DNA from: Candidatus Bathyarchaeota archaeon
GTDB lineage: Archaea > Thermoproteota > Bathyarchaeia > Bathyarchaeales > Bathycorpusculaceae
Reading direction: 5' to 3'
DNA: 64,000 bases
Assembly (NCBI GenBank): GCA_963811105.1
Contig: CAWEPZ010000011.1
Location: 608,001 to 672,000, forward strand
Each line of letters starts with the position of its first letter. Position 1 is the first letter of the stretch. The notes under the pieces were generated by a model, which worked only from the letters and a program-made list of their open reading frames with translations, did no database searches and was not told where the DNA came from. This document shows, one piece after another, positions 11,796 through 34,557 of the stretch. The position numbers were made by a program, and so were the translations under genes.

Positions 11796-11811
11796 ATCAA
11801 AGTTTCTTGAC
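11796..11811. repeat. Type A single palindrome at the array end, overlapping the stop codon
   Basis: ATCAA AGTTTC TTGAC; TGA of gene 11797-12570 lies inside it. Confidence 0.7.
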
Positions 11812-12570
11812 TTGAGATGTTCGGTGCGCTTTGAGATGAACAAAGAAAACAACTATAACAAATAAGGTTGCAGCCACTGTGCTTGCAAAGATTAGGATGA
11901 TAGTGGCGGTAGTTGAAGTAGAAGTTTTAGTTAAAGGAACTTGGTTAATGGTTGGTTGTGGAATATAGTTGTTAGGCTCTTTTGGGATTGTCGCTTGAGG
12001 AATTGAATTTGATGTGTAATTTGCGTTTGTAGGCAATGGTTGGGTATCAGGCGTATTTTTTGGTTCTACTGTGAAATCAACAGTGTCTGTCCATATGGCT
12101 TGATAATCTAAGCTTCCTGGACTTACAGGTTTAAAGGCTCCGTTTGGAGGGTTAGGACCGTTTTGATGTACGTCAACCTGAAGAGTTACTACTACTTGAT
12201 GAGGACCTGCGGATAACTCGGGGATATTTACTGATCCTATCGCTTCGTAAACAACGTGTAACTCATTGTTTGGATTGTTAACTGTCCAAGGTATAGACCC
12301 TTCGTCGTTTCCATCTAGGGTATATGTTAGGGTGTACTTCAGGCCCCCAACGGGAAAAGTTACGTTCAGCGTTAACAGATTTGAATCGTAGGTTTCGGAT
12401 CTGGGAAAAGTAATTTGAACTACTTTATAGGGCTGTGTAGTAGAAGCGTGGGCGGGCACAATTGTTTGAGTCCAGAACGCTAACGATATAAGAAATAGTA
12501 AAGGGATTAAAAGAGTGCAGAGTATTTTTTTGTTCGATCTTCCTTGTACTTTTCGCATTAACATCAACAA
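11797..12570 (-). CDS. Secreted membrane-anchored Ig-like protein (cassette)
   Basis: Signal peptide, ITFPRSETY/YTLDG/ELSAGPHQVVV Ig-like pattern, P/T linker, TM, tail QVKKL. Confidence 0.8.
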   Translation of the reverse strand: MLMLMRKVQGRSNKKILCTLLIPLLFLISLAFWTQTIVPAHASTTQPYKVVQITFPRSETYDSNLLTLNVTFPVGGLKYTLTYTLDGNDEGSIPWTVNNPNNELHVVYEAIGSVNIPELSAGPHQVVVTLQVDVHQNGPNPPNGAFKPVSPGSLDYQAIWTDTVDFTVEPKNTPDTQPLPTNANYTSNSIPQATIPKEPNNYIPQPTINQVPLTKTSTSTTATIILIFASTVAATLFVIVVFFVHLKAHRTSQVKKL

Positions 12571-12608
12571 GTTGCTAAAGGTGAAGGTCCAATATTACTC
12601 TCCCCCGG

Positions 12609-12656
12609 GAACAGTCTGTTCCGCTAAAAGAACGCTTAGTTAGTAAGTTTCTTGAC
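12609..12656. repeat. Junction site type B plus degenerate type A palindrome
   Basis: GAACA GTC TGTTC CGCTAAAA GAAC ... AGTTTC TTGAC. Confidence 0.8.
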
Positions 12657-13950
12657 TGGTATCAATGATGTCTAACCAATGTAACAACCGAGAAATTATT
12701 AGAATAAAGGGCAGAATTACTAACCAAGATAATTCTGGAACGGTAGGAGTTGAAGCTGTCGACGTTTGATCTGATGCTATTGGAGCGTTGCTGTCTGCGT
12801 TGAAGTTTATTGTTTGCTCAAATGTTGGGACAGAAGGAGTATTTGCCTCGGATTTAACAGAAATAGTCAGTTTATGAGAACCGTTTGACAGCCCAGTTAG
12901 TGTTATATTGCCATTGAGGGACTTCCAATCAGAAGCTTCAGGTTCACCGGTTGTATCCAAAGCATAATATGACCAAGTAACCTTTGAATCGACGCTATAA
13001 ATTATTGGCACTTGATTAATATTGTAGGTTGCTTGGTTTTGTGGTGAGATAATAGTAAATACTCCGGGTATTTGACCAGCCTGTGTTGGCAAGTTGATTG
13101 GTTGGCTAATTTGGTTGCTTACAGAAAAACGGGTTGCAAAATTTGATGTCATAATGTTGTCCCCGTAATCTGTCCATAGAACCAAAAATATCATCGTGTG
13201 ATTTCCAAGCGATTGAGTTGCTATTGTTCCAGTTAAAACTATGGTGGGATGGTTGGCTGTGTACACTGGAATATACGCCGGTGCGCTACCATTGATTACC
13301 ATTGGCCCATATGGACCCTTGGCTGAGTCTCTGCCTGCGATGGAGATAATGTTTCCTGTATTATCAAGTACATAGCTGACTGAGTATATTTCTCCGCGAA
13401 GTAGACTATTGGTAAACCAAGATGGTGGAATAGTTATGTTTATGGAGTAAGGAATAGGCTGATTTTCTGGAAAAACTTGGGGGTAAGTTGGAATATTAAC
13501 CTTTAGAATTGGAGCATCAGGGTTAAGGGTTGTTGGTCTGCCTACAGGAAACTCGACTCTTGCGCTTCCTTCATTTACCCAAGTTCCATAGTCGTATTTT
13601 ACATATACCATTATTACATGCCAACCATCCGAAAGATTCGGCAAAATTGCTTGGCTAGTAACTGATGAATATGAATAAGCACCTGAGGTGGAAATGCCTT
13701 GGTAGACTGGTGTCATGCTTACATTGGCTTGCCCGTCTACGCTATAAGTAATATATCGGTTCTCTGAACCTTTGAGAGGATCTAAAAACATTGAAGCTGA
13801 AATGTTGAGCAAAACAGGATTTATATTATTACCATAACTCTCAGGTGAAACAATAGTAACTTGCAGAGGACCAGGTTCAAAATTAGCCCATACGCCAACT
13901 ATATTGTATGCTCCCAGAAACATTGAACTGATAACTATTACGGCTAACAT
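12640..13950 (-). CDS. Secreted multi-Ig-like surface protein with PEF-CTERM-like (VPELSW) anchor (cassette)
   Basis: Repeated IVSP/IISP..YSVDG..LSxGxH units; TVPELSWLVILPF; tail may be frameshifted. Confidence 0.8.
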   Translation of the reverse strand: MLAVIVISSMFLGAYNIVGVWANFEPGPLQVTIVSPESYGNNINPVLLNISASMFLDPLKGSENRYITYSVDGQANVSMTPVYQGISTSGAYSYSSVTSQAILPNLSDGWHVIMVYVKYDYGTWVNEGSARVEFPVGRPTTLNPDAPILKVNIPTYPQVFPENQPIPYSINITIPPSWFTNSLLRGEIYSVSYVLDNTGNIISIAGRDSAKGPYGPMVINGSAPAYIPVYTANHPTIVLTGTIATQSLGNHTMIFLVLWTDYGDNIMTSNFATRFSVSNQISQPINLPTQAGQIPGVFTIISPQNQATYNINQVPIIYSVDSKVTWSYYALDTTGEPEASDWKSLNGNITLTGLSNGSHKLTISVKSEANTPSVPTFEQTINFNADSNAPIASDQTSTASTPTVPELSWLVILPFILIISRLLHWLDIIDTSQETY

Positions 13951-14015
13951 TTTTGCATTAATAGTTAACCACCACTATTTTTTCCAATGCTTTGTTGTGG
14001 TTAAAAAGCTTATTC

Positions 14016-14055
14016 GTAAAATTTTCTTGACTATGGTTAGTCAAAGTTTCTTGAC
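14016..14055. repeat. Cassette-junction site type A, full copy
   Basis: GTAAA ATTTTC TTGAC TATGGTTA GTCAA AGTTTC TTGAC. Confidence 0.85.
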
Positions 14056-14128
14056 GCAGTTTACTTGGTGGTTTTTCGATGCCTTCTAAGTAGAAGTAAA
14101 GAAGCAACTGCATTTTAAAGGATAAGGC

Positions 14129-15817
14129 CTACTTCACACTTCTTTCCTTGCTTAAAAACACAAACGCAAAAGCAACTACAACCACAACGATAACACTCAT
14201 CAGCACCAAGATGGCAATTTGAACCCAATCTAAACCCAGAAAAACTGCGTGTTGATACCCAGACTGAGTGAATTCGATTGATATTTGATGAGTGCTGTGG
14301 TGATAGCTAAAAGACACGAGCCAAGAATCTCCTTGGGACTGGGTAGTGTAAACTAATTGATTTCCGTCAAGGTAAACCTTGAGATTAGAAGCGTCACTGA
14401 TAAGTGATTTGGGAATATGCACATTAATGTATCCTGTTGTGTCTGAGGAACCGCTGACTGTAAAACTTAATTCTTTGCTTGTGGAGTTGAAGAAAATTTC
14501 TGAAAGAGTGGAATTTGATATTACGGAGAAAGCCAAGTCTTTTTCGTAAGGTGTCACAGCAAAGTTGACTGTAGTGCTTGTTTGAGGATATTGGTCATTT
14601 CCGAGCCATTCAGCTTTGAGCAAGTAATTTCCTGTGACTGTTGGCATCCAAACCGCCAAAAAATCTCCATTGCTATCTGTGTTCAATAGAGTAAGGTCTA
14701 TCCAAGAGTTGCCGCCGTTAACGCTGTAAGATAACTGGATTGATGCGAACGGTACACCTTGTCCATCAGCAATTAAACTACCATTGATGTCTACTTTGAA
14801 GTTCGAAAGTGTTGCAGAGCTTTGGCAAGAAACAATGAGGGTAGGCGTAGAAGGATTTAGATAGGATTGATTTGAACCGACGGTTATGGTGTATGCGGCT
14901 TGCCCTTGGGAAGTCATAACATCTACTATTAGTGGATCTCCTGGACTGACGTTTAGGGGTCCTGTACCATTAATGTTCAATTCTGTCCCGAAGCCTGCTA
15001 AAACTATTTCATGATCTGACCAACTTGTCAAATAAATGCCGATCATGTCCTTGGGCACCCATTGTGAATCCGTGCACCCCGCCTCCCAACTGTTAAAGCC
15101 TGCTTCATCGTATATTCTTATGACCGGAGTGGTTCCCCCGACAACGGTGTCGACGGATCCATCGCTTAGATTCATAAGTTGAGGCGAAATATTCCCAAAA
15201 CCATCGCCACTTATTATTATTGTTTGTATCCGAGTAGCTGCAATGTGGCTAATTGAAGATATTTCTGGTGTTGCTCCGGATGATCCAGGCAGATTTTGGC
15301 CTGTTGAACCAACAACATCTGTGTAAATTGCTTGTCCATTGGTAGTTTGCACTGCTATCAGCATTGGATCGCCTAAAGATAGGGTCCATTGTCCAGTACC
15401 GTTTATGCTTAGTGCCGTTCCAAAGCCGCCTAAGACAATGTCCGTGTCTGACCAACTCACTAATATGACGCCAATACTATCCGCACCCGTATTTGGAGTA
15501 TCTTGTACACCTGCTTCCCAACTGCTCGAACCGCCTTCATCATAAAACCTTATGACTGGAGTAGTGCCTCCACCGACAGTATCTACAGATCCGTCCCCCA
15601 GATTGAAGAGTTGAGGTTGAATTTTGCCGAAACCGCTACCGTGAATAAATATGGTCTGTATTCTGGTTGCTTCAATCGTGCTTACCGAGGAAATTTTTGG
15701 TGTACCGCTTTGAGACCCCACAAAATCTGCAGTACCGAAAGAAGCCAAGCCGCTAACCATAAAAGCTATCAAGAAAATGCATAGGAATGACTTCTCCATA
15801 GCTATAACCACAATCAA
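14129..15817 (-). CDS. Secreted surface protein with two tandem IPT-like repeats and the shared C-terminal module (cassette)
   Basis: Duplicated ISS..ATRIQTI.I.G.GFG...GSVDTV.GGTTPVIR.YDE unit; SNSTLS..FNSTSKELSFTVSG..TTGY..YHHSTH; TM. Confidence 0.8.
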   Translation of the reverse strand: MIVVIAMEKSFLCIFLIAFMVSGLASFGTADFVGSQSGTPKISSVSTIEATRIQTIFIHGSGFGKIQPQLFNLGDGSVDTVGGGTTPVIRFYDEGGSSSWEAGVQDTPNTGADSIGVILVSWSDTDIVLGGFGTALSINGTGQWTLSLGDPMLIAVQTTNGQAIYTDVVGSTGQNLPGSSGATPEISSISHIAATRIQTIIISGDGFGNISPQLMNLSDGSVDTVVGGTTPVIRIYDEAGFNSWEAGCTDSQWVPKDMIGIYLTSWSDHEIVLAGFGTELNINGTGPLNVSPGDPLIVDVMTSQGQAAYTITVGSNQSYLNPSTPTLIVSCQSSATLSNFKVDINGSLIADGQGVPFASIQLSYSVNGGNSWIDLTLLNTDSNGDFLAVWMPTVTGNYLLKAEWLGNDQYPQTSTTVNFAVTPYEKDLAFSVISNSTLSEIFFNSTSKELSFTVSGSSDTTGYINVHIPKSLISDASNLKVYLDGNQLVYTTQSQGDSWLVSFSYHHSTHQISIEFTQSGYQHAVFLGLDWVQIAILVLMSVIVVVVVAFAFVFLSKERSVK

Positions 15818-15847
15818 AACAAATGTATTATCGATAAAAGCATTCTC

Positions 15848-15887
15848 ATCAAATATTCTTGACTAATATTAGTCAAATTTTCTTGAC
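15848..15887. repeat. Cassette-junction site type A, full copy
   Basis: ATCAA ATATTC TTGAC TAATATTA GTCAA ATTTTC TTGAC. Confidence 0.85.
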
Positions 15888-15899
15888 TGGTTTTTTGTG

Positions 15900-16895
15900 T
15901 CAAACATTTCCTTGTAGTCTCTTTCTAACCGTAATCAGAGCAATTGGAATGGAGAGTAGTAAGGGTAGGATTGTCAACCAAGAAAACTCTGGAATTGTGG
16001 GGGAAGATGGTAAGGTATAGTTATAGGGTTTAATCAGAGGATATCTGTCGATTACTTGTGGAGCGGCCTCGCTAACATACGTAATATTGCCTATACCTGA
16101 ATAGCTTATTTCAACTGCTTGAGGATATCTTCTTGCATAGTCATTCCAGTAGTTGCCTTCAACTCCATTGTCCCAGGGTTTAGTATTAGCAGATTTTGGA
16201 AAGAGCAGAGTTCCAAATGTGAGTACCTCAACGTTGAGGAAATTGTTGTGGTAAACTTGAAATTCGCTAGTTTGTGTACTGATAAAGAAGGTTGTGAGTC
16301 TGCTAAAAGTTATGTTATTAGATTCAATTTTTAGTGCTGTACAATTAGTTATCCAAAAGCCAGTTGCATAATCACCTAGCACTATTTGATTTTGAGATAT
16401 TGTATTGTTGTTTCCTACTATCCGTTCTGGGCCAATTTGATTTCCTATTATTTTGTAATTACTGGCGTATACTGCAACATCATAAATATTATTGGAAAAG
16501 TAGTTGGACTGAATTGTATTGTTATCAGAAGCTCCTATTACTCCTAAACTCCAGTTAAAGATGTGAAAATTGAAAATAGTGACATTGGTACAAGCCAAGT
16601 ATATGGCAGCCATATTGTAAGTTTCCCTTCCAGGTCCTTGAAGGTTAAGACCAGAACCGTTTAGAATAATGTTGTTACGTTGAATTGTGATATTGCAGTT
16701 TTGAATGTTATCAGTTAAGGTATAGATGCTTCCATTATGTTGAATAGGTGCTGTTGAAGGCTCAATGGTTCCATCTGACGTTATGTAAATGGGAGAAACA
16801 TCAGAAGGATTCAAAGAATTAGCTCTAGATACATCTAACCTCAAAGCTGACAAAACTACAAAAAGAATCAGCAAAGAAACTAACGCTTTCTTCAT
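15900..16895 (-). CDS. NosD/CASH right-handed beta-helix surface protein with PEF-CTERM-like anchor
   Basis: IYITSDGTIEPSTAPI, Asn-rich beta-helix, WDNGVEGNYWNDY, DRYPL, IPEFSWLTILPLL. Confidence 0.85.
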   Translation of the reverse strand: MKKALVSLLILFVVLSALRLDVSRANSLNPSDVSPIYITSDGTIEPSTAPIQHNGSIYTLTDNIQNCNITIQRNNIILNGSGLNLQGPGRETYNMAAIYLACTNVTIFNFHIFNWSLGVIGASDNNTIQSNYFSNNIYDVAVYASNYKIIGNQIGPERIVGNNNTISQNQIVLGDYATGFWITNCTALKIESNNITFSRLTTFFISTQTSEFQVYHNNFLNVEVLTFGTLLFPKSANTKPWDNGVEGNYWNDYARRYPQAVEISYSGIGNITYVSEAAPQVIDRYPLIKPYNYTLPSSPTIPEFSWLTILPLLLSIPIALITVRKRLQGNV

Positions 16896-17551
16896 CTTAT
16901 TCGATGCCTTCTATAGATAGTAAGAGCAACAACCCCAATGGAAGGGGCAGCTATAACTAATGATAATATGGTGAAGAATTCAGCGTCTTTAGGTAACAAT
17001 TCACCATCAGGCTTCTCTGTTATATTGGAATTTTGAGAAATAGTGAAATTAACTGAAGCTTTGTCTAAACTCTGAATGCTTCTTATCCGTGGGTTAAGAC
17101 TGTCTGGCTTAACATCTAATCGTAAGAAATGAGTTCCTTCTGAAATATTATGCAGAGTTGTAGTGTAGTTTAGCCACGTGTTGCTATACCAGCATGGATT
17201 TACAAGAGAACAAAAAGCCTCATGTCCGCCAACTGAAACAAGAGTCATATTTTGGCGGTCAGAACCATCTAAACTATAAATACAACTGATATTTTGGTAA
17301 GGAACATAATGCGTATTTGGCTCAGACTCAATTCCTCCTATATGCAAACCTGCGTTTACAACAATATCAGAATCTGTATACGTGAAGTTTTCAATCGGTG
17401 AGGTTATAGCTATTTGACCAGAAAGTTCATCATAATTAAAAGGAATTGCAGCGTTTGGCGAATAGCAGGAACCAAAATTTAACGCTAGAACTGGAAAAAT
17501 AAATCCGACAAGAAACAAAAGTAATATTTTCTTATCCACAATCATCATCAA
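16892..17551 (-). CDS. Secreted membrane-anchored Ig-like protein
   Basis: Signal peptide, ITSPIENFTY, YSLDG, ISEGTH, TM, RRHR tail; stop overlaps the start of the next gene. Confidence 0.75.
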   Translation of the reverse strand: MMMIVDKKILLLFLVGFIFPVLALNFGSCYSPNAAIPFNYDELSGQIAITSPIENFTYTDSDIVVNAGLHIGGIESEPNTHYVPYQNISCIYSLDGSDRQNMTLVSVGGHEAFCSLVNPCWYSNTWLNYTTTLHNISEGTHFLRLDVKPDSLNPRIRSIQSLDKASVNFTISQNSNITEKPDGELLPKDAEFFTILSLVIAAPSIGVVALTIYRRHRIR

Positions 17552-17590
17552 TATTATTCAGGTATTTTCTTGGTTATAACTCTCCTGAAA

Positions 17591-17637
17591 GAACAAGGTG
17601 TTCCGCTAAAAGAACGGTTAGTCAAAAGTTTGTTGAC
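17591..17637. repeat. Junction site type B plus type A palindrome
   Basis: GAACA AGG TGTTC CGCTAAAA GAAC GGTTA GTCAA AAGTTTG TTGAC. Confidence 0.8.
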
Positions 17638-17641
17638 CTGA

Positions 17642-18364
17642 TTATTTTGGCGTTTTTCGATGGCTTCTAAACAGCAGTAAAGCACCAATAACAATCGCCA
17701 AGATTGCAGCGGTTACAATCGCTAAAATATAGGATGCAGGAAAATCAGCTCTATCGTTAATATTTGAATTACTTGCAGTCGCAGAAGATTGAATCGGTTG
17801 AATTGTTGGAGATGGTTCTAATGTTGAAGGAATTGTGTTTACTGTAAAGTTAGTTTTTTCAGAATAAGTATCAATGTAGTAATTCATTTCGATGTTCCAA
17901 GTTCGACTATCATTTTTATCGTAATAACTATTGTAATAACTATCGGAGTGAATGCGTATTTGGAAGCTATGATTTCCTTCAGATAGATTAGTTAAGTCTC
18001 CTTGATAGCTGAAGGGTTCTTTTCCGTATTTTAAATAATCAGCGTAATTGGAAATTGCAACTTCATTGTTGTTGTCGAGTTTGTATAAGATTACCATTAT
18101 TTGACCGTGAACTGGGTCATAGTCAAACCATGATGAAGGTTTTCTTATAGTTAATGAATAATGGATTGTGTCGACATCATAGGTCTTATTATTTATTGGT
18201 TCGCTAATGGTTATCGTTGGCTCATTCTTATCGGGTGTTGTGGGTAGCGGTGCTTGAGGAGAAGGATTTCCAACTGCTAACTCCACTATCGCCATACTAA
18301 TTATGGCTGACATTAGAAAGACTAATGCAACCGCCAAAGGTGTTCTTTTCACAAAGACAACCAA
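17642..18364 (-). CDS. Secreted membrane-anchored Ig-like protein (cassette)
   Basis: Signal peptide, ITISEPINNKTY, NLSEGNHSF, TM, RSHRKTPK tail. Confidence 0.8.
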   Translation of the reverse strand: MVVFVKRTPLAVALVFLMSAIISMAIVELAVGNPSPQAPLPTTPDKNEPTITISEPINNKTYDVDTIHYSLTIRKPSSWFDYDPVHGQIMVILYKLDNNNEVAISNYADYLKYGKEPFSYQGDLTNLSEGNHSFQIRIHSDSYYNSYYDKNDSRTWNIEMNYYIDTYSEKTNFTVNTIPSTLEPSPTIQPIQSSATASNSNINDRADFPASYILAIVTAAILAIVIGALLLFRSHRKTPK

Positions 18365-18401
18365 GTTATTACTGCGTTGAATTTGCTATTTACGTTTTTT
18401 C

Positions 18402-18441
18402 GTCAAAGATTCTTGACTGGGGTTCGTCAAACTTTCTTGAC
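18402..18441. repeat. Cassette-junction site type A, full copy (extra degenerate palindrome at ~18463-18480)
   Basis: GTCAA AGATTC TTGAC TGGGGTTC GTCAA ACTTTC TTGAC. Confidence 0.85.
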
Positions 18442-18530
18442 TAAACGCAAACTGTCGGTTAAGTCAAAGTTTTTCTTGAATAGTTTAAGATTAGATTTCT
18501 GGTACGCAGTAAATTCATAATTGAAGTTCA

Positions 18531-19680
18531 TTACGACTGTCGCCCGTGTTTCTTAATGTAAACTGTGCTTCCAACACATATCACAGCTACTGCTGCCGCT
18601 ACGACCGCAATCAATAACATCGATTGAGTGAAGTTACCTGTTGATTCATTTGGTGTGAGTGTGGCGGCGCTGATGCCTTGGTCAGTTAAATTAAAGCTAT
18701 ACACTTCTGATGTGCCAATGTTACCGCCGTTGTCTTTAGCATAAACAATTATTTTATGGCTCCCATAAGCTATATTTGAGATAATAGTTGAATTGCCGTA
18801 AATAGTTTTGTTGGCATTGCCGTCCAGGCTGTAGCCTATCCAAGGTGTAGGCTCGTTAATCTCAATAACTAGCGGTAAATTGATCCAGTTAAAGACATGG
18901 GAAATTATTGTTCGGTTGGCGATTGCGGCGGCGTCAATATGGATGATTGGAGCGTTGTGATCTCTTACGATGAAATCGACGGCTTGAGAAGTATAGAGAT
19001 GTCCCGCACTGTCGTTGCCGTACATTGTTAAAGTGTGGGAGCCTTCTAAAAGGCCGTTAAGAGACAGAGTGGCTAAGCTGGTAATTACTTGGTTATTGTC
19101 CAAACTAAATCCTGCCCAAGAGAGAGGTGTATCGCTTTTGAATTCAAGAAGCATACTAGTTGAATCATAGGTTTTCGGTTTCGGAGACAATCACATGAAT
19201 CGTTGGGGTTGCATCGCCAACTATGAAGTAGTTGGTTACAGAAAAATTGGAAAGTGGTTTGCCGCTAGAGTAATCGGTAAGGTCTGTTTGTCCATAAATA
19301 GATAGTGAGTGAACTCCATCTGATAAATCGGTAATTGCTTTTATCACAGTGGCGACATGACCTGAACTGCCTACTTGAGTATTGAATGTCAAATTAACCC
19401 CTGGATGACCATCCAAGCTGTATTGCATCCAAGTTACTTTTTCGGCTGCCGTAAAAAAATGGCTGTTGGTCACGACTTTCACGTTCATGTAGATAGTTGA
19501 CTCATTATATACCTTGTTCATAGCTGGAACGGAGACTGACACTTTCGGTGCCAATTGATAAAGTTCAAAATTGGCTGATGCAAACTCAACCAAGGGAAAG
19601 GACAGCAATGGAGTTAGAAGCATTAGCAGGCAAAATAGCGTTAAAGCCTTCTTATCCAGAAATACACCGTTCGCTGGCAA
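18531..19680 (-). pseudogene. Multi-Ig-like anchored surface protein split by a frameshift (ORFs 19165-19680 and 18531-19190)
   Basis: The N-part has a signal peptide and ends PTIHV; the C-part resumes SPKPKTY, has YSLDG/GSH units and a TM. Confidence 0.7.
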
Positions 19681-19737
19681 TTTTCATAGCCTCTTCTAAC
19701 AAAGTTATTTGCAATCGATTTTCTTAAAAGGTTTTCA

Positions 19738-19777
19738 GTAAAACAATCTTGACTGGGTTTAGTCAAAGTTTCTTTAT
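19738..19777. repeat. Cassette-junction site type A
   Basis: GTAAA ACAATC TTGAC TGGGTTTA GTCAA AGTTTC TTTAT. Confidence 0.8.
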
Positions 19778-19809
19778 TTGCGCTTTCTAAACAGCAAAAT
19801 ATTACCGAG

Positions 19810-26508: not shown

Positions 26509-27921
26509 TTAGTTTATTTCTTTTTGTTTCTTGTTTAAACCTAGCGAGTATTTTGCTGCAACTACCAGTATAGTGCCAAATATGGCTACTATTACGATTA
26601 GTATTATTTCGCTTCCTGGTTGTTGGGTTCCTTTGAGTTCTGTTGCGGGTGCATTTGCGTCTATGTGCATGCTTATTTGATGGGTGCTGTGCGAATAATT
26701 GAATGTGAATACCCAAGAATCATCTGTTGAAGTTACTGTGTAATTGAGTTGTTTTCCGTCAATGTATGCTTGTAAGCCGTTACCGTTTGGAAGTAAACTC
26801 TTGGCTATTGTAGCTTTAACGAAACCTGTCGTTCCAGATGGACCTGTTACGTTAAAACTCAAAGTGGCTGTCTCATTGTTGAAAGCCAAAGCGTTAACGG
26901 TGCTGTTTGATTCGATAACCAAAGTATTTTTGTTTTCAATGGGCAAGAAGTTTAAAGTGGTAGTATTGCTTGCGTAAGTGTTTGTTGAGTCTCCGCTCCA
27001 CTCCGTCTTAAGTGTGAATGAGCCTGAGGCACTGTTTATCCACTGGATATTGTACGTGCCTTCGTCGTTTGTTAGTCCCGAACTTATGGGTATCCAAGTT
27101 TTTGCTCCTGGAAAAGTGTAGGATAAGACAACTGTTTTATTCTGCAATGGAACCCTGCTAGAATCCGATAACGTACCGAAAATGTTTACTGCTGAACCAG
27201 CGGTTGTTGACAAAGACTCGGTGGAGATTGAAAGGATTGCAGGGTTATTAAAAGGGTCTTGGATGTTTCGGAATGAATAGTCAGCTGGTGAATTGCCCCA
27301 TACGCCTAATCCTATGTATTTAATGTCTTCGAATGTGAAATTGGCTATTTCGGACGTTGAAAGTGACCCTATTGATGTGCCATTTTCGTCAAGTACAGTT
27401 GTTGTGATAGCAAAAGGAGATGATGCAACACTTAATTTCATCGTGTACCAAACGTGCGGTTCTCCGAAAGCAACTTCGCTTGCCATCCAGTCGCTCCAAT
27501 TCCTCGCCAACTGAAAAACGCTCTCACCATAGTATCCATATTCAAAGTTAAATCCAAGAGTACTTCCTGCAATCGGCAGGCTGCTTCTAACGAATACTCC
27601 ACAGCTTTCAGGCGTCTCAGCGTTCACTTGAAAAGAAAACGTGAAATCACTGCTAGGTTTAATTTCCTTATAAAAAGATATTGCAGGACTAACACTACCG
27701 CCGTTGCTCCATAACCTCAAAGTACCGTTTGATTCAGCATAGTAGCCGCCTTTGTCTTCAACTTGCCACCCTACAAGCGAGGTTGGGGCTGCCTGACTCT
27801 CGCAGCGGCTTAGTTGACTAAACGTCAAGACCAAAAGGCTGATTAGGAGCAACATGGGGATTAGCTTTTTCCACACAGACACTCGACCTTTAATGAGGCT
27901 AACAAGATTGTCACTTGTCAC
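26509..27921 (-). CDS. Secreted surface protein with a lectin/ConA-like N-domain and the shared C-terminal module (cassette)
   Basis: Signal peptide; SNSTVNALAFNN..LSFNVTGPSGTTGF..YSHSTH; TM. Confidence 0.75.
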   Translation of the reverse strand: MTSDNLVSLIKGRVSVWKKLIPMLLLISLLVLTFSQLSRCESQAAPTSLVGWQVEDKGGYYAESNGTLRLWSNGGSVSPAISFYKEIKPSSDFTFSFQVNAETPESCGVFVRSSLPIAGSTLGFNFEYGYYGESVFQLARNWSDWMASEVAFGEPHVWYTMKLSVASSPFAITTTVLDENGTSIGSLSTSEIANFTFEDIKYIGLGVWGNSPADYSFRNIQDPFNNPAILSISTESLSTTAGSAVNIFGTLSDSSRVPLQNKTVVLSYTFPGAKTWIPISSGLTNDEGTYNIQWINSASGSFTLKTEWSGDSTNTYASNTTTLNFLPIENKNTLVIESNSTVNALAFNNETATLSFNVTGPSGTTGFVKATIAKSLLPNGNGLQAYIDGKQLNYTVTSTDDSWVFTFNYSHSTHQISMHIDANAPATELKGTQQPGSEIILIVIVAIFGTILVVAAKYSLGLNKKQKEIN

Positions 27922-27961
27922 TTAAAATATGAAGATTTGTTTTAAAGATAAAAGAGTTTTC

Positions 27962-28023
27962 GTCAACATTATTTGACTAACAGTTTCTTTTTAGCGTTTT
28001 TTAGTCAAGAAACTTTGACTAAA
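27962..28023. repeat. Variant type A site with the second palindrome inverted and displaced
   Basis: GTCAA CATTAT TTGAC, 26 nt, GTCAA GAAACT TTGAC; arms TTTTAGTCAA/TTGACTAAAA are perfect. Confidence 0.75.
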
Positions 28024-28119
28024 ATCAAAGCAAGAGTCCACGCTACTTTAGCCCAGAAAAGGTAGTTCGGTTCTATTGCTTTCCAATTTGCCTTAATCCA
28101 CCCTTTTATTAGTTGAACA

Positions 28120-29319
28120 TCATTTTTTATACCTAAGTATCACCGCAACAGAGAGCATTATGACAAACAATGATAGAATTGTCAACCAAGAAAACTCAGG
28201 AACAGAAGGAGATGGGGTTGGACTAGGAGAAGGGCTGTTATTGGGGTTGCTGTTTGGTGTTGGGGAAGAGGTAGAATAAGGTAATGCTGTTGATGAATAA
28301 GTAAGATAGTTTTCAATGTTAACAGGATTAAGCAATGGAAAATTATCTTGGTTGAACTCATTTATTGTATAGGGTATACTTCCAATGCCATTGCTTCCAG
28401 TTCCTCTGTATTTATCCCAATGATTACCTTCCTTGCCATCATCCCAATAATTGATTGATTTTACGACTCTGATCAGGTCATAGTATGAAGAATCATTTGA
28501 GATATCCTTTGAATTAAAAAGAAAATTATTGTGATGCAGTACATTCTTTGTGCTTCCAACAAAATGAGTAGCGTCAGTATTGTAAGCTATGTAGTTTCCC
28601 ACTACATAGTTTTGGCTTGTAAAGTAGTAAAACAAGCCTGTGTACGCTGAAGTTATTTTGTTAGCTGAAACAACAGTGTTGTTTACATTTCTATCTGAGA
28701 AGCGTAAACCTACATGGCTAGAACTGATATCATTATTTCTAATCAGGTTATGAGTAGAAAATCCAGTGATATCAATCCCATAGTAATTGTCCCAAATAGT
28801 ATTTGCTTCAATCAAATTATTACTGGAAGAATGCACCCAAATGCCATTGCCACTATTTTCTATCTTATTACCGGTGATATTGCAGTTTTGAGACTGTTCT
28901 AGTTGTATAGCAACAAGTTCTTTATCAAAAATGATGGCACTAACGGTTGGTTGTTTGGTATTAGTGGCAACTAGAGTTAATGCTGAAATGGCAACTTGAC
29001 TATGGTTTACCATTAACATAAATGGATTTGATTGACCAGTAATAATGGTTGACTCCTTATCCTCACCTGTAAGTGAGATTGCTTTGTCAATTATGATGTT
29101 GCTTTCTTGATAGGTGCCTTTCTTTACATAAACTGTATCTCCGTCATCTGCATGACTTACAGCATCTTTGATAGTGGAATAATCAGCTGGCACAACTATT
29201 GTTTCAGGTTCTAAAACGGTAGTTCCTGATTCTGCCTCTGATATTTGGATTAATGGTACAACTATCAAACTAAGAAATAGCAAAATAATTGCTAAGACTA
29301 CAGCTTTATTGGTTCTCAT
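28120..29319 (-). CDS. NosD/CASH beta-helix surface protein with PEF-CTERM-like anchor (cassette)
   Basis: IVVPADYSTIKDAV..GDTVYVKKGTYQE, WDDGKEGNHWDKY, DNFPL, VPEFSWLTIL. Confidence 0.85.
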   Translation of the reverse strand: MRTNKAVVLAIILLFLSLIVVPLIQISEAESGTTVLEPETIVVPADYSTIKDAVSHADDGDTVYVKKGTYQESNIIIDKAISLTGEDKESTIITGQSNPFMLMVNHSQVAISALTLVATNTKQPTVSAIIFDKELVAIQLEQSQNCNITGNKIENSGNGIWVHSSSNNLIEANTIWDNYYGIDITGFSTHNLIRNNDISSSHVGLRFSDRNVNNTVVSANKITSAYTGLFYYFTSQNYVVGNYIAYNTDATHFVGSTKNVLHHNNFLFNSKDISNDSSYYDLIRVVKSINYWDDGKEGNHWDKYRGTGSNGIGSIPYTINEFNQDNFPLLNPVNIENYLTYSSTALPYSTSSPTPNSNPNNSPSPSPTPSPSVPEFSWLTILSLFVIMLSVAVILRYKK

Positions 29320-29363
29320 TTTTCCAAATCTACTGCTGTTTGACTATCCCTAAAAGGCTTTCA

Positions 29364-29403
29364 GTAAAATAATCTTGATTGTGATTAGTCAAACTTTCTT
29401 GAC
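29364..29403. repeat. Cassette-junction site type A, full copy
   Basis: GTAAA ATAATC TTGAT TGTGATTA GTCAA ACTTTC TTGAC. Confidence 0.85.
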
Positions 29404-29500
29404 TACGCAAATTTGCGTTTGTGTTGTTTTTCAACTCTCATTTTTTCAGTCAACAAAAGCCAGTCTGAACCATTCTATTCCTTTTTGCTTCATTATGCGA

Positions 29501-30709
29501 TCAGAGCCTCTTTACAGAATTTTTGCGTCTCACAACAATAAGAATCGCCGCTCCTGCCACGACACCTAATGCGGTTGCAGCTACTATTTCTAAAGTTGCA
29601 GTCGGTGTTGCATTGGACGTTTCAGCTGCTTGAGCTGTCGTTGAAGATGACATTGATGAGGGTGCAGTTCGATTGAGTGATATGTCTTCAACGGGTTTGT
29701 ATTGCCAAATGTTTGAGCAGTAGAAACTGGAGCCGTCAGTGTAGCCCCCTATTGCGTACAAAGCATCACCAACAGCTGCAACGCCAAGAGCGTTTCTGTT
29801 ATCAATCATCGGAGTACCCATTGTCCAAGAGTCGTTTTGGGGAAAATAGACTTGGTTGAAATCTGTGCCCGATTGGTTGCCGTATCGTTGCTTCTGAGTG
29901 CCGCCTCCCAGTACGTGAATTGCGCTTGTGTTAGACGTTGTTAAGGTAACCGCTGCTGAGTTCTCGACTGAGTTTGGAATAGGTGCTGCGGTGGTCCAAG
30001 TGTCGGTCTGAGGGTCATACACTTGAACTATGTTGGTGATGTCTCCATTCTGCATGACTCCTGAAAATACGTATATTTTGTTGTCTACTGCTGCGGATGC
30101 GTATGACGCGACTGGATAGGGCATAGGTGCCAACTCTTTCCACGAGTCTACTGCAGGGTCATAGGCCTGGTTTTCCCCTGAAATCATGTAGGAGAGTTGA
30201 CCAGGTAAAGCTTTAGGCGAGTTATCCTTGGTCATTGTTCTTCCGCCAATCAAGTAGATTTCTCCGTCAACCACGTTTGCTGTTAAGAACCATCTTTGGG
30301 TAGGCATGGGAGTTTTCGCCATCCAAGAATCCGATGTTGAGTCATAGACGTTGTTTGCTGGTCCTCCGATACAGTAGATTATGTCTTGGTAAGCAGCGAT
30401 GCCGAAGCTGTTGAGCCAGTTTGGTCCAGGCATCGGCGTTTTCTCAACCCAAGTGTCAGTGGCTGGATTGTAGGCTTCGTTTGTGTTGGTGGTTCCTGTG
30501 CGATTGTTATGATATCTGTCCTGTACTGCTGTTAGCCCGCCAATTGCGTAAATCGTGCCATTGGCTGTCACGGCACCAAACATGTATCTTGCCGTGGGCA
30601 TAGGCGACTTTTCAACCCATGAAAGGGCTTGAGCGTCGGAGGGATGAATGGCAAAACAGCTTACTGTTATGATGATGAGCGCAAACACGAACACAAATAC
30701 CTTGGCCAT
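29501..30709 (-). CDS. Kelch-repeat secreted, membrane-anchored protein (cassette)
   Basis: Repeated MPT.R...IY.IGG...YDP.TD.W Kelch blades; signal peptide; TM. Confidence 0.9.
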   Translation of the reverse strand: MAKVFVFVFALIIITVSCFAIHPSDAQALSWVEKSPMPTARYMFGAVTANGTIYAIGGLTAVQDRYHNNRTGTTNTNEAYNPATDTWVEKTPMPGPNWLNSFGIAAYQDIIYCIGGPANNVYDSTSDSWMAKTPMPTQRWFLTANVVDGEIYLIGGRTMTKDNSPKALPGQLSYMISGENQAYDPAVDSWKELAPMPYPVASYASAAVDNKIYVFSGVMQNGDITNIVQVYDPQTDTWTTAAPIPNSVENSAAVTLTTSNTSAIHVLGGGTQKQRYGNQSGTDFNQVYFPQNDSWTMGTPMIDNRNALGVAAVGDALYAIGGYTDGSSFYCSNIWQYKPVEDISLNRTAPSSMSSSTTAQAAETSNATPTATLEIVAATALGVVAGAAILIVVRRKNSVKRL

Positions 30710-30758
30710 ATTCTGTCATCAAACTGTATTCGCAAGGTTCCTATTAGCTCTCCTTGAA

Positions 30759-30783
30759 GAACAGGCTGTTCCGCTGAAAGAAC
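30759..30783. repeat. Junction site type B
   Basis: GAACA GGC TGTTC CGCTGAAA GAAC. Confidence 0.8.
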
Positions 30784-30820
30784 ACTGCGTTAACCCAAGT
30801 TCTCATCTTACCTTTTAGTG

Positions 30821-31025
30821 CTAAACATTTCCTTGTAGTCTCTTCCTAACGATAATTAGAACAAATAGGATAGCGAGTAGTAAGGGTAGAATTGTCAACC
30901 AAGAAAACTCTGGAACAGTTCGAGTGGGTGTTGGTGATATACTTTGATTTGGAGTTGGTAAAGTTATGATTGCTTTCTTTGGGTCATGATTGTATGGTTT
31001 CATTAATGGGTAGTTGTCGATGTTT
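30821..31025 (-). pseudogene. 3' remnant of a NosD-family PEF-CTERM gene
   Basis: DNYPLMKPY...VPEFSWLTILPLLL..VRKRLQGNV; tail closely matches gene 15900-16895. Confidence 0.75.
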
Positions 31026-31097
31026 CGTTATTAATAATTTAGACGGGTAGGTTTTAAAATGCAGTTGCTCTCTAACAATTGATTAGAGGCTAACAAG

Positions 31098-31787
31098 CTG
31101 GTTAGGCTAAAGCAACTTTGGAAGAACGATTACTTCAAAACAATATTCGCCATTGTCTTGGTTGTTACGTTAGTTCTTGTTTTCTTCTTCGGCTTAAAAT
31201 TAGCGTTTAATGTTTCCTATGGACCAATAGTTGTAGTTGAAAGCGGTAGCATGTGCGTTCCTTACGGCACAGGATGTGCCGGCTGGAACAGCATCACACA
31301 CCCGTTTGACCACACCCTGCACAAAGGCGATATCGTAATTATTCAAGGGGTAAATCCTAAAGATCTGAAAACGGGCTATCCCAACAGCGATGTGATCGTT
31401 TTTTACGACCCAAATGATCATACCGCCACTCCGATCATACATCGCATTATTTCGGTAACAGATGTCAACGGCACACTGTATTTTATAACTAAAGGGGATG
31501 GAAATGGCAGTCCTTCAGCAAAATGGCCGGCTCCTGTAACATCAATTGACGGCTTGGACCAATGGGATTACCTAAATAATCCACCCGGAGTTCCGCAAAA
31601 CGATGTTGTTGGCAGGGTTGTTATGCGGATTCCATGGTTTGGATGGGTAGCATTGATTATGCAGCAGAGTTCATGGGGTTTGCCATTAATAATGGGGTTA
31701 ATAGTACTGCTGATAGTTGTGGAATTTATAATTCCGATGTTTAGAGGGAACAAGAAAAAGACCGAAAACAAAAGCTTTCTTGACTAA
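31098..31787 (+). CDS. sec11: Signal peptidase I (S26, archaeal Sec11-type)
   Basis: VVESGSM (Ser), GDIVII, PIIHRII (His), ITKGDGN, VVGRVVMRIPWFG; frame is open to a CTG at 31098 (ORF track starts at 31158). Confidence 0.85.
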   Translation: MVRLKQLWKNDYFKTIFAIVLVVTLVLVFFFGLKLAFNVSYGPIVVVESGSMCVPYGTGCAGWNSITHPFDHTLHKGDIVIIQGVNPKDLKTGYPNSDVIVFYDPNDHTATPIIHRIISVTDVNGTLYFITKGDGNGSPSAKWPAPVTSIDGLDQWDYLNNPPGVPQNDVVGRVVMRIPWFGWVALIMQQSSWGLPLIMGLIVLLIVVEFIIPMFRGNKKKTENKSFLD

Positions 31788-31810
31788 GTTTTCGTCAAAC
31801 TTTTCTTTAC
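31769..31810. repeat. Degenerate type A site shared by two convergent gene ends
   Basis: CAAAA GCTTTC TTGAC TAAGTTTTC GTCAA ACTTTTC TTTAC. Confidence 0.65.
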
Positions 31811-32953
31811 CTGTTTTCGATTTCTTCTAACGAGAAATAAAGCGATGGTACTTATTCCAATTATTATGATTGAAGTCATAGCTAAGTAAGTTACAATTGG
31901 GGAAGACTCGGTCTTCGTGGTAAAAACAATGGCTTGCGAGGAACCTATGTTTCCGTAGGTGTCTTTAACGTAAACTGTTATGTTATGTTCTCCTTTAAGC
32001 AAGTTTGTTAACGTTATATTTCCATAAAGTGTTACGTTATTCTGTCTGTCTAAGCTATATCCGATCCAAGATATGTTAGGGAAAGCATTCAAAGAAGATT
32101 CAATTAGTGATTTGCTCAAAATGATTGGTTCGTCAATCAAAAACGTAAGTGGAACATTGCTTGAATTATAGACACTGTTTTGAGGAGACAAAACAGAGAT
32201 AATCGGCGAAATCGGTAAGGCAAAAAAAGCATTATACTGTTTGTTATAAACAAAGTCAAGCATGGTGAAATAGACTGTTTCAGAAACTCCAACATTTCCA
32301 GTTGCATCAACCGCATAAACAGTCATGTTATTCGCACCTACCTTATATTCTCCGATTGTTTTATTTCCAAATATCGTTACATTCGCTTGATTATTGATAC
32401 TATATGTTGCCCAAACGATTGGTTTGCTAACCGAATAATTTAGGGGAAGCCCTGAGCCAAAGCCCATGTATGTTTCATTTTTTGGAGACTGTACTATGAT
32501 TCTTGAAACGCTATCATCGGAGATTGGAGTAATTGTATCTACATGAAAGGTAACATTCGAACTAAAAACATGATCCATATCTGTTAGCCCATGAATCAAT
32601 AATGTGTGTTCACCATTTCCCAAGCCAGATATCCATTCGGTTACAATTATTGGAGTGTACGCAGTATATTCATGAGGATAAGAGAATGCTATAACAACAT
32701 CTGGTTTCCCATCTAAACTATAATAGAGATTTTTAATTTTCTCAAGGTTAGGTCCATATCCACTTAACGTAATTGTAAGAGCTAAAGGAACATTGGAACG
32801 ATAGGTTTCATTCTGTAAAGGTGAGGATATAGCAAGCTCAGGAGGAGACCAATTAATAAAATTGGCTGACGCCATCTTAACCGGTACTCCAACAATTGCT
32901 AAGGATAATAGCAACACTATTGTCATTACAGTCGTTGGTCTAATGTTCTTCAT
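31784..32953 (-). CDS. Secreted multi-Ig-like anchored protein (cassette)
   Basis: Three ISSP/VQSP/VLSPQN..YSLD..GEH units; TM; tail RRNRKQVKK. Confidence 0.8.
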   Translation of the reverse strand: MKNIRPTTVMTIVLLLSLAIVGVPVKMASANFINWSPPELAISSPLQNETYRSNVPLALTITLSGYGPNLEKIKNLYYSLDGKPDVVIAFSYPHEYTAYTPIIVTEWISGLGNGEHTLLIHGLTDMDHVFSSNVTFHVDTITPISDDSVSRIIVQSPKNETYMGFGSGLPLNYSVSKPIVWATYSINNQANVTIFGNKTIGEYKVGANNMTVYAVDATGNVGVSETVYFTMLDFVYNKQYNAFFALPISPIISVLSPQNSVYNSSNVPLTFLIDEPIILSKSLIESSLNAFPNISWIGYSLDRQNNVTLYGNITLTNLLKGEHNITVYVKDTYGNIGSSQAIVFTTKTESSPIVTYLAMTSIIIIGISTIALFLVRRNRKQVKKSLTKT

Positions 32954-32996
32954 TTTATCAAGTAATTCTTCTTAAGTTTTCAATAAAAGGTTTGCA

Positions 32997-33036
32997 GTTA
33001 AACAATCTTGACTTGGTTTAGTCAAACTTTCTTGAC
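32997..33036. repeat. Cassette-junction site type A, full copy
   Basis: GTTAA ACAATC TTGAC TTGGTTTA GTCAA ACTTTC TTGAC; contains the stop of gene 33022-34479. Confidence 0.85.
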
Positions 33037-34479
33037 CAGTTTTTTATACCTCAGTGTCAACGCAACACAGAATATTGAGGCAAACAGAGGCAGAATTGCT
33101 ATCAATGGCAACTCTGAAACGGAAGGTGTTGGTGCTGTAGTTGAGGTTTGTATGTCGGTTGGCGTGGTAATTCTTGCGAATGTTGCATTTATAGTGTGGC
33201 TGGTTTGAACATTGGGCAGGTTGTATGCGTTGATGGCTCCCTGCGATACTCCATTGTCTGTTACATCTAAAATTTGGTACCCGACATCTGGAGTTATTAT
33301 GAAGGTGAAGCCACTTCCCGGGTATGCGAAATAGGAATCATGCCCACGGATACCATTAATGTTTCCTCCTGAACCTGCATAAACGTCTACAGCATAATCA
33401 ACATAAAGTGTTTGCGTTGGTGTAGGAAGTACAGCATCGGTTGGTATAGCAGAACGTGAACCATCTGACAACACTGCGACTAAGTCGCTGCTGTCTGCTA
33501 CGAATATTTTGCCTGTTTCTTCATCACAGAGAATTTTATAAGGCATTAAAGGCAATGCCATAGTCTGAACAATGGTATTAGTGCTATCGGATATGATTGA
33601 GATAGAATTTGGGACTATGTTGCCAACGATTATTGCGCCAATGTTTGAATCATAAGCTATACCGCTTGTCATGGTGTTAGAAGGCAAATTGACTGTTGCA
33701 ACTACCGAATGAGAGATACCGTTTATTATTGAGACCTTGTCTGTACCTAAGTTAAGTGCGAATATCTCACCTTTGCCAGAATCGTAAACTATGCTTTGGT
33801 CACCCAATGCTACATTAACTGGGAAGGTTGCAGCCACTTTGTTAGTTGAATCCGATATAACAGAGATGAGGTTTCCTTCACCGTATAAAGAAACTGCAGA
33901 GGGATAACTGGTTACATATATTTCTCCTCTTCCAGAATTGTAAGCCAAGCAATGCGGTTGCCCCTCAATTGGTATAGTTGCTATGATGTAGTTAGTATTA
34001 TCTGAAATGACGGACACCGTGCCGGAGGCTGAATTTGCAACGAAGACCTCATTTTTACCGGAGTCATATACTATGCCTGTTGGGACACTTCCCACGCTTA
34101 TGTTTGCTACAACTAAATTTGTGGTATCAGAGATTACCAACACCGTGTCAGCGGCAGCGATGGATACGAATATTTCGCCTTTGCCCGAGTCATAAGCCAG
34201 GCAATAGGAGCTGTATCCCTTGTTTAGCTGGGCGCTTGTCAACTGAATGCTTGCAACTATATTATTATCAGTATCGTGTATAATTGAGATGGTCCCAATG
34301 GAAGAATAGGGTTGACCTGAAGAAACGAATACTTCACCCTTGCCAGAATCATAGGCTAAAGCCTGATTTCCAGTCGTAGAAAGATGAATAGTCTTAATTA
34401 CTGTGACTTGACAGGAAGCAGGCACAGCTAACAAGAAGACCAAAAACAAAAGAATGAAAACTTTGAACCAATTGTTCAT
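33022..34479 (-). CDS. YVTN/YncE beta-propeller surface protein with InlB-B-like domain and PEF-like anchor (cassette)
   Basis: Repeated AYDSGKGEIFV..VSVISD.TN blades; FTFIITPDVGYQILDV; VSELPLIAIL..RYKKLVKKV. Confidence 0.85.
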   Translation of the reverse strand: MNNWFKVFILLFLVFLLAVPASCQVTVIKTIHLSTTGNQALAYDSGKGEVFVSSGQPYSSIGTISIIHDTDNNIVASIQLTSAQLNKGYSSYCLAYDSGKGEIFVSIAAADTVLVISDTTNLVVANISVGSVPTGIVYDSGKNEVFVANSASGTVSVISDNTNYIIATIPIEGQPHCLAYNSGRGEIYVTSYPSAVSLYGEGNLISVISDSTNKVAATFPVNVALGDQSIVYDSGKGEIFALNLGTDKVSIINGISHSVVATVNLPSNTMTSGIAYDSNIGAIIVGNIVPNSISIISDSTNTIVQTMALPLMPYKILCDEETGKIFVADSSDLVAVLSDGSRSAIPTDAVLPTPTQTLYVDYAVDVYAGSGGNINGIRGHDSYFAYPGSGFTFIITPDVGYQILDVTDNGVSQGAINAYNLPNVQTSHTINATFARITTPTDIQTSTTAPTPSVSELPLIAILPLFASIFCVALTLRYKKLVKKV

Positions 34480-34517
34480 ATGTGCTTATTCGGTTTTTTT
34501 ACAATAAAAAGCTTGCA

Positions 34518-34557
34518 GTAAAATAACCTTGATTAAACTTAGTCAAACTTTCTTGAC
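34518..34557. repeat. Cassette-junction site type A, full copy (right end of the array)
   Basis: GTAAA ATAACC TTGAT TAAACTTA GTCAA ACTTTC TTGAC. Confidence 0.85.

Follow-up and report, generated by a model that had tools for sequence, protein, structure and literature searches.

A paired inverted-repeat element upstream of surface-protein genes in Bathyarchaeia, probably the regulatory part of a stereotyped promoter

A 40-bp element composed of two short inverted repeats recurs in front of surface-protein genes in a 64,000-nucleotide (nt) stretch of the genome of Candidatus Bathyarchaeota archaeon (G000:C11:608001-672000, referred to here as the window; G000 is the 3.49-Mb assembly of this archaeon). 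Very likely it forms the regulatory, upstream portion of an archaeal promoter of stereotyped layout, through which these genes are co-regulated. Read on the gene strand, it has two 16-bp inverted repeats, called boxes below, first the distal and then the proximal one, which are mostly 8 nt apart; the proximal box is followed by 8 purine-rich nt and a TTTTA-type box. A first-pass annotation of the same DNA had read the repeats as sites of an integron-like recombinase system that accretes or shuffles cell-surface genes, and the position of the sites relative to genes and promoters argues against that reading. No published description of the element was found in the literature, in which the motif string itself was not searched.

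The double box is well above chance in the window. The exact motif GTCAA-N6-TTGAC-N8-GTCAA-N6-TTGAC occurs twice, at 2772 and 18402, where 0.00 copies are expected, and the exact single palindrome GTCAA-N6-TTGAC occurs 11 times against 0.06 expected. When up to three mismatches are allowed, eight double sites are found (Table 1) against 0.01 expected, and none of 100 shuffled sequences reaches eight. These are the same eight coordinates given by the first-pass annotation. Its partial or variant copies at 11796, about 12645, 17621, 27962 and 31769 are real, while the copy at 48754 is a one-mismatch single box within an open reading frame (ORF) and, with 2.7 such matches expected per window, is indistinguishable from chance. 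All eight full sites face a minus-strand gene at its 5' end and abut a TATA-like box. The distal palindrome has a 6-bp asymmetric core, as had been noticed earlier, and its orientation relative to the gene is constant throughout. The sites agree in the arms of their boxes but not in the 8-nt spacer or the flanks, and the distal cores themselves vary, at least at a degenerate 10th position. Between orthologous boxes of G000 and G077, a close relative that is 90-96% identical, the arms are unchanged and the core is altered. Altogether 63 boxes were counted in G000. Three of the 63 overlap an upstream stop codon, and three ORFs terminate within a distal box; with such a count, distal boxes are ruled out as regular stop-codon donors for upstream genes.

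Matrices derived from the window's own sites were run over the whole assembly, one of 40 nt covering both boxes and one of 32 nt that runs from the proximal box up to and including the TATA box. Above 40 bits, 16 genome sites are obtained with the 40-nt matrix: eight in the window, one elsewhere on the same contig, one on C9 and six that form a second cluster (C2:219-257 kb). The 32-nt matrix gives 72 matches above 14 bits, compared with none in a shuffled genome, and 36 rows above 24 bits. Four of these rows were judged to be distal boxes or to have no TATA box, and the other 32, with the proximal box 8 nt before a TATA-like box, were kept as promoters. This position of the proximal box is invariant, and the 8 purine-rich nt that follow it occupy the place where a B recognition element (BRE) would lie. 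A downstream ORF is present in all but two of the 36 rows, and in 29 of these 34 the distance from the start of the proximal box to the start codon is 44-81 nt. The commonest distance is 54 nt (n=6), with a possible seventh case at C2:257099, where a 455-amino-acid (aa) gene starts at 54 nt and the automated pick was a spurious ORF of 37 aa. With the centre of the TATA-like box about 27 nt into the matrix, transcription would be expected to start right at an ATG located at 54, which fits a leaderless mRNA. Genome-wide, the TATA-like pentamers in front of 1614 long ORFs peak at -31 to -29 from the ATG, the same register as in the box promoters, and a second broad hump is seen at -56 to -40.

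The spacing between the two boxes is also constrained. Of the 32 promoters, 19 have their boxes 7-10 nt apart, four have them 18-20 nt apart and one combines a gap of 26 nt with an inverted distal box; gaps of 11-17 nt are absent from the set, and the two gap classes differ by one helical turn. The remaining eight promoters have no distal box and carry the proximal box alone. Distal boxes are direct in 23 of 24 cases and inverted in one. In G077, and also in L100 (L100 and L101 are two short metagenome contigs, too few for statistics), one box is common to two divergent promoters, as is often the case for operator-type sites. Separately, a second conserved element is found behind the single-box promoters at 12590-12656 and 17575-17637 and at G000:C2:663648 (minus strand), with a TATA-like box, a 7-bp inverted repeat, a purine-rich stretch resembling a ribosome-binding site and the start codon in that order. 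The 7-bp inverted repeat corresponds to a hairpin in the 5' untranslated region (UTR) or at the transcription start, and the element may act as a regulatory signal of its own, in RNA or in DNA.

The genes behind the boxes are nearly all of one class. The downstream ORFs that reach 150 aa number 25, with one gene entered twice; 24 of them have a hydrophobic N-terminus, compared with 416 of 2362 background ORFs of that size, and 19 have a C-terminal anchor as well, compared with 182 of 2362. Most genes of the array at 11797-34479 have both features, and several match no family. The NosD, Kelch, Ig-like and YVTN folds that had been recognized from the sequence are borne out by profile matches (NosD/beta-helix, Kelch, PQQ-like with Ig-like, and YVTN/YncE), and box-driven products outside the window include NosD, Kelch, PQQ, CarboxypepD_reg and BNR-type proteins. 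Since the folds behind the boxes are unrelated, the shared element is not a by-product of whole-gene duplication. The array is co-oriented on the minus strand, as previously described, except for the plus-strand gene of signal peptidase I. Many anchors finish in an RRHRK-type tail or after a PEF-like motif, for which NCBIfam reports no sorting-signal model, and C-terminal anchor coding regions are common to several genes. Out-of-frame remnants of RRHRK-type tails are seen upstream of two distal boxes, at 14060-14095 and 34557-34600.

The element is conserved within the genus. A 30-position pattern, searched with at most one mismatch in 41 genomes, is present in 16 of the 24 other species of the genus, a count that overstates independence because the sister genomes are related to each other. 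The same pattern is found in none of the 16 genomes that represent 11 other families of the order, and the reversed pattern, used as a control, is found in none of the 41 genomes. In 11 of 12 loci of the relatives an ORF begins 64-89 nt from the start of the motif, and nine of these ORFs have a hydrophobic N-terminus. In two species (G010:C6 = L010 and G023:C14 = L011) the gene that follows a full double box is a conserved Cys-rich ORF of 59 aa, possibly a zinc ribbon, which is the only non-secreted product met repeatedly behind boxes.

These features agree with what is known of archaeal upstream sites, namely inverted repeats of 13-17 bp at a fixed distance from the TATA box, helical-phase spacing and a coherent, conserved regulon. 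The closest parallel is provided by the ArnR boxes of Sulfolobus acidocaldarius. At the flaB promoter of that species, a pair of 15-bp inverted repeats at -43 to -84 precedes the BRE and TATA box and is bound by membrane-bound helix-turn-helix (HTH) regulators, in a manner that needs both boxes (PMC6396743). By this analogy the element is most likely an ArnR-box-like upstream site, with activation as its likely effect. Both systems have paired short inverted repeats upstream of BRE and TATA box, with a 5-5-5 layout at -43 to -84 in one and a 5-6-5 layout at about -39 to -78 in the other, and both concern surface structures and a membrane-anchored one-component HTH regulator, here a candidate only. 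They differ in the sequence of the boxes and in the genes served, which here are about 30 promoters of unrelated surface proteins rather than pilus or archaellum operons.

The proposed mechanism is as follows. If transcription starts at the commonest ATG, the boxes would lie at about -39 to -54 and -63 to -78, and the start codon, about 25-50 nt beyond the TATA box, would often coincide with the expected transcription start and give a leaderless mRNA. A dimeric winged-helix transcription factor would bind each box, and two dimers would cooperate on one face of the helix and aid the loading of TBP and TFB, thereby activating transcription. In this way roughly 30 genes for secreted, membrane-anchored surface proteins would be co-regulated. 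The repeated element may in addition double as a crossover point for homology-driven inversions, deletions and gene replacements, so that the array would differ between close relatives. The sign of the regulation could also be the opposite, with the boxes binding a repressor or a dual regulator that acts, for example, by looping or by occlusion of the BRE. This variant is nested in the promoter reading and is possible, if rather doubtful. With no more than 8 nt between the proximal box and the TATA-like box, a dimer on that box could get in the way of TFB at the BRE, and the ArsR/SmtB-type relatives of the candidate factor are named repressors. The TATA-like boxes, on the other hand, are imperfect, which would suit an activator-dependent promoter, and the site of Ptr2 is one case of an activator site upstream of BRE and TATA box. 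Archaeal sites described as lying wholly upstream of BRE and TATA box, such as those of ArnR, are activator sites in the portion of the literature considered (PMC6396743).

The protein that would bind the boxes can be named only tentatively. A family of membrane-anchored ArsR/DUF7347 winged-helix proteins, whose N-terminal HTH is followed by one transmembrane helix and some 300 aa of outside domain, is a possible but weak candidate. In terms of domain layout alone, it differs from ArnR, in which the HTH is combined with HAMP and sensor domains and two C-terminal transmembrane helices, in having an N-terminal ArsR-type HTH, a single transmembrane helix and an outside domain. The member of 428 aa in this genome (G000:C1:65342-66625; HTH_5 34.5 bits, DUF7347 32.8 bits) is encoded divergently from the box promoter of a 55-aa membrane protein, with boxes at -94 and -128, and its nearest solved relatives are PH1932 and ArsR/SmtB proteins, with weak E-values. 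The protein has homologues in 21 of the 24 genomes compared within the genus and in one of the 16 outside it. Seven of 31 homologous loci (seven of 26 in an overlapping set of loci) have divergently oriented boxes at most 400 nt upstream, and the density of boxes upstream of the homologues is 0.97 per kb compared with 0.03 per kb elsewhere in those loci. A second member of the family, a winged-helix protein of 168 aa with a transmembrane segment (C12:4710-5216), has variant boxes upstream. Its close homologues are present in nine of 16 motif-positive and one of eight motif-negative sister genomes, a suggestive co-occurrence in a tally made by eye, with close defined as E <= 1e-40 plus two G004 fragments and with genomes that are related and unequally complete.

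The comparison of gene order with G077 provides insight into how the array changes. G077 holds pieces of the array on one contig in a changed order (blocks in Table 1). Neighbouring blocks overlap by 23 and 18 bp, the overlaps being the boxes themselves; these have the same sequence in both partners, so that the exchange cannot be located more finely. The junction 18445/28022 is the expected product of an inversion between the inverted box 28004-28019 and the distal box 18426-18441, and it is also present in L100, a contig from an independent data set. In the slot of the gene 14129-15817, which is flanked by two distal boxes, two unrelated genes in G077 replace everything downstream of the distal box of site 15848-15887; matches in G000 to the first of them are partial and 32-40% at best. 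On the promoter side of this slot, similarity falls after the distal box or after the TATA box. The L101 junction lies in a C-terminal anchor coding region, outside any box. Unrelated genes can share a promoter module of about 55-95 nt that takes in the spacer and the 5' UTR, so that boundaries are also found downstream of the TATA box; examples of such sub-families are 32997 with C2:243837, and a G077 promoter that is 82% identical to 29308-29403. Contigs of four public DNA runs (X1, X2, X9 and X10), compared with window 11700-31699 at 90% likeness or more, gave many apparent joints or loose ends at 14055, 15869-15897, 18441-18446, 28019-28024 and 29385, with sides of only 20-37 nt. Such joints were discarded as junction evidence, since sides of this length are motif-only matches from other loci or organisms. 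Site 18402-18441 is spanned in the reference order by three of these contigs (X1 record 2, X2 record 20 and X9 record 26).

Because the boxes and the anchor-coding ends are almost the only homology among neighbouring genes, homology-dependent exchange must map there, and the breakpoints against G077 at boxes are attributed to homology-driven recombination between dispersed promoter repeats. Several observations nevertheless weigh against a purely regulatory element. Five of the eight ends of G077 blocks (28022, 18445, 14055, 11797 and 31813) lie at most 4 nt from a box, in line with the prediction of the first-pass annotation that gene order and content would break at the sites in relatives, and a sixth, 15828, lies 20 nt from a box and beside the TATA-like box of that site. 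Synteny of the array was found in none of 60 other species, in which single genes match scattered places at 64-79% identity, too low for placing breakpoints. Syntenic, conserved genes with breakpoints away from the sites, the outcome that had been set against the recombinase reading, are thus not what G077, the two metagenome contigs and the 60-species comparison reveal. The constant, asymmetric distal core is not needed by a symmetric homodimer site and is typical of tyrosine-recombinase core sites. A lone box without a promoter closes the array at 11796, and for three surface-protein genes at 20382-26193 and the Kelch gene no box-type promoter is recognizable. As for the candidate regulator, 24 of the 31 homologous loci, including the closest one (L066, 97% identical protein), have no upstream box.

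One alternative is that the distal box, embedded in the promoter, is the core site of a dedicated recombinase encoded elsewhere that moves gene cassettes in the manner of an integron or shufflon. The layout of arm, core and arm (arms of 5-8 bp around the 6-bp asymmetric core, in constant orientation), the inversion-type junction 28004-28019 x 18426-18441 shared with L100, the replaced slot between two distal boxes, the box at the array end and the three ORFs ending in distal boxes are all in its favour, as are the block ends cited above and the seven intact-looking tyrosine recombinase genes elsewhere in the genome. Xer/dif core sites also have inverted arms and an asymmetric core, dif being single-copy, while pdif and inversion systems such as shufflons and Mycoplasma vsa/vsp have alternating or inverted sites with a recombinase nearby. 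The element thus resembles Xer/dif sites and surface-gene inversion systems in its inverted arms around a 6-bp asymmetric core, in the variable surface-protein genes that it accompanies and in the one inversion-type junction between oppositely oriented boxes, but it differs from dif in occurring as 63 boxes per genome and from the pdif, shufflon and vsa systems in its nearly uniform orientation and the lack of a recombinase nearby. The intact tyrosine recombinase looked for beside the array is not in the window, where the only PF00589 match is a 30.5-bit fragment with a stop codon (47875-48027); 16 PF00589 matches occur in the genome, none of which adjoins either array, the nearest intact one on the contig being about 283 kb away, and the genome has no match to serine recombinases (PF00239). 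Differing cores hinder strand exchange by a tyrosine recombinase, and the distal-box cores do differ between sites. Nor do the breakpoints seem to share one fixed point, one lying in the anchor-coding region and one after either the distal or the TATA box, and with the boxes as the sole homology between neighbours, homology-dependent exchange would map to the same places. A recombinase gives no reason for the lock to TATA box and start codon at about 30 promoters, for shifts by a helical turn or for boxes that are proximal only, and isolated single-gene copies are kept in 16 of 24 sister species. The reading is consequently judged unlikely.

In its integron-like form, the same reading is disfavoured by the location of the sites, which lie 5' of the genes in register with TATA-like box and start codon and not at cassette 3' ends, as well as by the single-box promoters, the helical-turn spacing and the isolated single-gene copies in the genome and in the sister species. 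Within the literature drawn on here, integron arrays, including archaeal ones, are similar in having co-oriented unrelated genes split by a palindromic repeat, some ORFs ending inside it, and a content that differs between relatives with boundaries at the element. In these arrays, attC is located at the 3' end of mostly promoterless cassettes, forms a long imperfect hairpin and works with adjacent IntI and attI (PMC9668308). The element here lies 5' of each gene, has its own TATA-like box and, judged by eye, consists of two short separate palindromes, and the PF00589 search found no integrase beside the array. A further proposal, that the distal box serves both as an upstream activating element and as the crossover site of a dedicated recombinase that inverts, deletes or swaps promoter-plus-gene cassettes, is held to be improbable as well. 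Least probable is that the boxes have no present function and are recent paralogous promoter copies spread with duplicated gene ends. The promoter sub-families sharing 55-95 nt with spacer and 5' UTR, and the shared anchor coding regions, are what such copying would leave, but the arms are conserved where the 8-nt spacer and flanks vary, the motif is kept in 16 of 24 species whose genes show only 64-79% nucleotide identity, and orthologous boxes of G000 and G077 keep their arms through changes of the core. Diversification of a surface-gene island by homologous recombination has a counterpart in the cell-wall island of Haloquadratum walsbyi, whose surface-gene diversity is attributed, in the part of the account consulted, to homologous recombination and mobile elements (PMC4535781). 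That island, too, is a cluster of secreted, anchored surface proteins and a mosaic of conserved and strain-specific genes; the breakpoints here map to promoter boxes of 16-22 bp, and no such boxes are described in the cited part of that work.

Table 1. Features of the array and its surroundings, and blocks shared with the close relative G077 (window coordinates)
Feature	Position	Strand	Remarks
Double box	34518-34557	-	Proximal 34518-34533, distal 34542-34557, then TATA-like box; promoter of 33022-34479, whose start codon is 54 nt from the proximal-box start
YVTN/YncE-type beta-propeller, secreted, anchored, 485 aa	33022-34479	-	TIGR02276, 50.1 bits (cut-off 27.85); stop codon within the distal box of the next promoter (32997-33036)
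Double box	32997-33036	-	Promoter of 31784-32953
Secreted, anchored protein, 389 aa	31784-32953	-	Weak Ig-like matches only
Decayed double box	31769-31811	-	Between two convergent gene ends; synteny breakpoint versus G077
Signal peptidase I, archaeal type	31158-31787	+	TIGR02228, 62.2 bits (cut-off 51.85)
Kelch-repeat protein, secreted, anchored, 402 aa	29501-30709	-	No full double box upstream
Double box	29364-29403	-	Promoter of 28120-29319
NosD/beta-helix protein, secreted, 399 aa	28120-29319	-	PEF-like C-terminal anchor
Variant site	27962-28019	-	Proximal 27962-27977, 26-nt gap, inverted distal 28004-28019; promoter of 26509-27921; inversion-type breakpoint versus G077 and contig L100
Secreted, anchored protein, 470 aa	26509-27921	-	No Pfam family; 96% identical in G077
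PQQ-like beta-propeller and Ig-like surface proteins	20382-22148 and 23539-26193	-	Small ORF in between
Double box, distal box weakened	19738-19777	-	Promoter of overlapping ORFs 19165-19680 and 18531-19190
Double box	18402-18441	-	Promoter of 17642-18364, 16892-17551 and 15900-16895; distal box is synteny breakpoint versus G077 and L100
Single 17-nt box variant with indel	17621-17637	-	Then TATA-like box and conserved 5' hairpin; internal promoter of 16892-17551
Double box	15848-15887	-	Promoter of 14129-15817
Secreted, anchored protein, 562 aa	14129-15817	-	No Pfam family; slot variable between close relatives
Double box	14016-14055	-	Promoter of 12640-13950; homology with G077 and G074 stops at outer edge 14055
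Single degenerate box with indel	12641-12656	-	Then TATA-like box and conserved 5' hairpin; promoter of 11797-12570
Lone box	11796-11811	-	Overlaps stop codon of 11797-12570, no promoter behind; synteny breakpoint versus G077
Double box outside array	2772-2811	-	Promoter of 1170-2717 (515-aa secreted, anchored protein)
Block shared with G077	31038-31813		94% identity
Block shared with G077	26464-28022		96% identity
Block shared with G077	15828-18445		91% identity
Block shared with G077	11797-14055		90% identity

The gene of signal peptidase I is convergent with the array, and its position at the array end is kept in G077 (L099 15557-16183); its last codons overlap a box half-site. The overlapping ORFs 18531-19190 and 19165-19680 resemble one gene split by a frameshift, and the G077 orthologue of 12640-13950 is divided into two ORFs. 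In the second array, small ORFs at C2:244.1-244.6 and 253.2-253.9 kb have N-termini that resemble toxin-antitoxin-type pairs, possibly nucleotidyltransferase/HEPN-like and DUF433/PIN-like.

A dispersed repeat of about 110-210 bp gives 36 BLAST matches in the genome, including the query copy, with window copies at 9473-9691, 34601-34810 and 42904-43057 and a tandem run at C9:7354-7844. Compensatory changes between copies are seen in a 15-bp inverted repeat that is part of it. Two direct copies flank the array, a G077 copy (L099 6812-7090) flanks the array there, and further copies are found near other box loci; one of its frames resembles a fragment of a small HTH-like protein. In the window, Rfam at gathering thresholds reports three tRNA matches only. 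Two of them are adjacent (35380-35555) and precede the first array promoter by about 0.8 kb; the third (47614-47689) is beside the tyrosine-recombinase fragment with the stop codon. Together, the tRNA matches and this fragment look like old integration scars around the island. Just outside the array, a radical SAM protein with a weak SPASM match (36613-37758, plus strand) adjoins a GDSL lipase gene (35635-36360).

Bathyarchaeia are abundant and essentially uncultured, and we know of nothing that has been established about gene regulation in them. The element is most likely a cis-regulatory one that had not been described before, and the genes it serves would make up a surface-protein regulon in one genus of this group. 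Its rigid promoter layout yields a ready-made regulon and a probable model of transcription starts, with many leaderless mRNAs, and the 40-bp site could be used as a probe for the cognate factor without culture. The NosD-like beta-helices, the Kelch and PQQ propellers and the Ig-like proteins are marked as probably switched together, which would provide a handle on how the cells deal with surfaces, polymers or viruses. The breaks in gene order at promoter boxes of 16-22 bp, between genomes that are 90-96% identical, offer a concrete mechanism for the turnover of surface islands, and they are also the sole observation that still gives the recombinase idea a testable footing. If the distal box did have both uses, it would constitute an archaeal, promoter-embedded analogue of shufflons and integrons that diversifies the cell surface of Bathyarchaeia.

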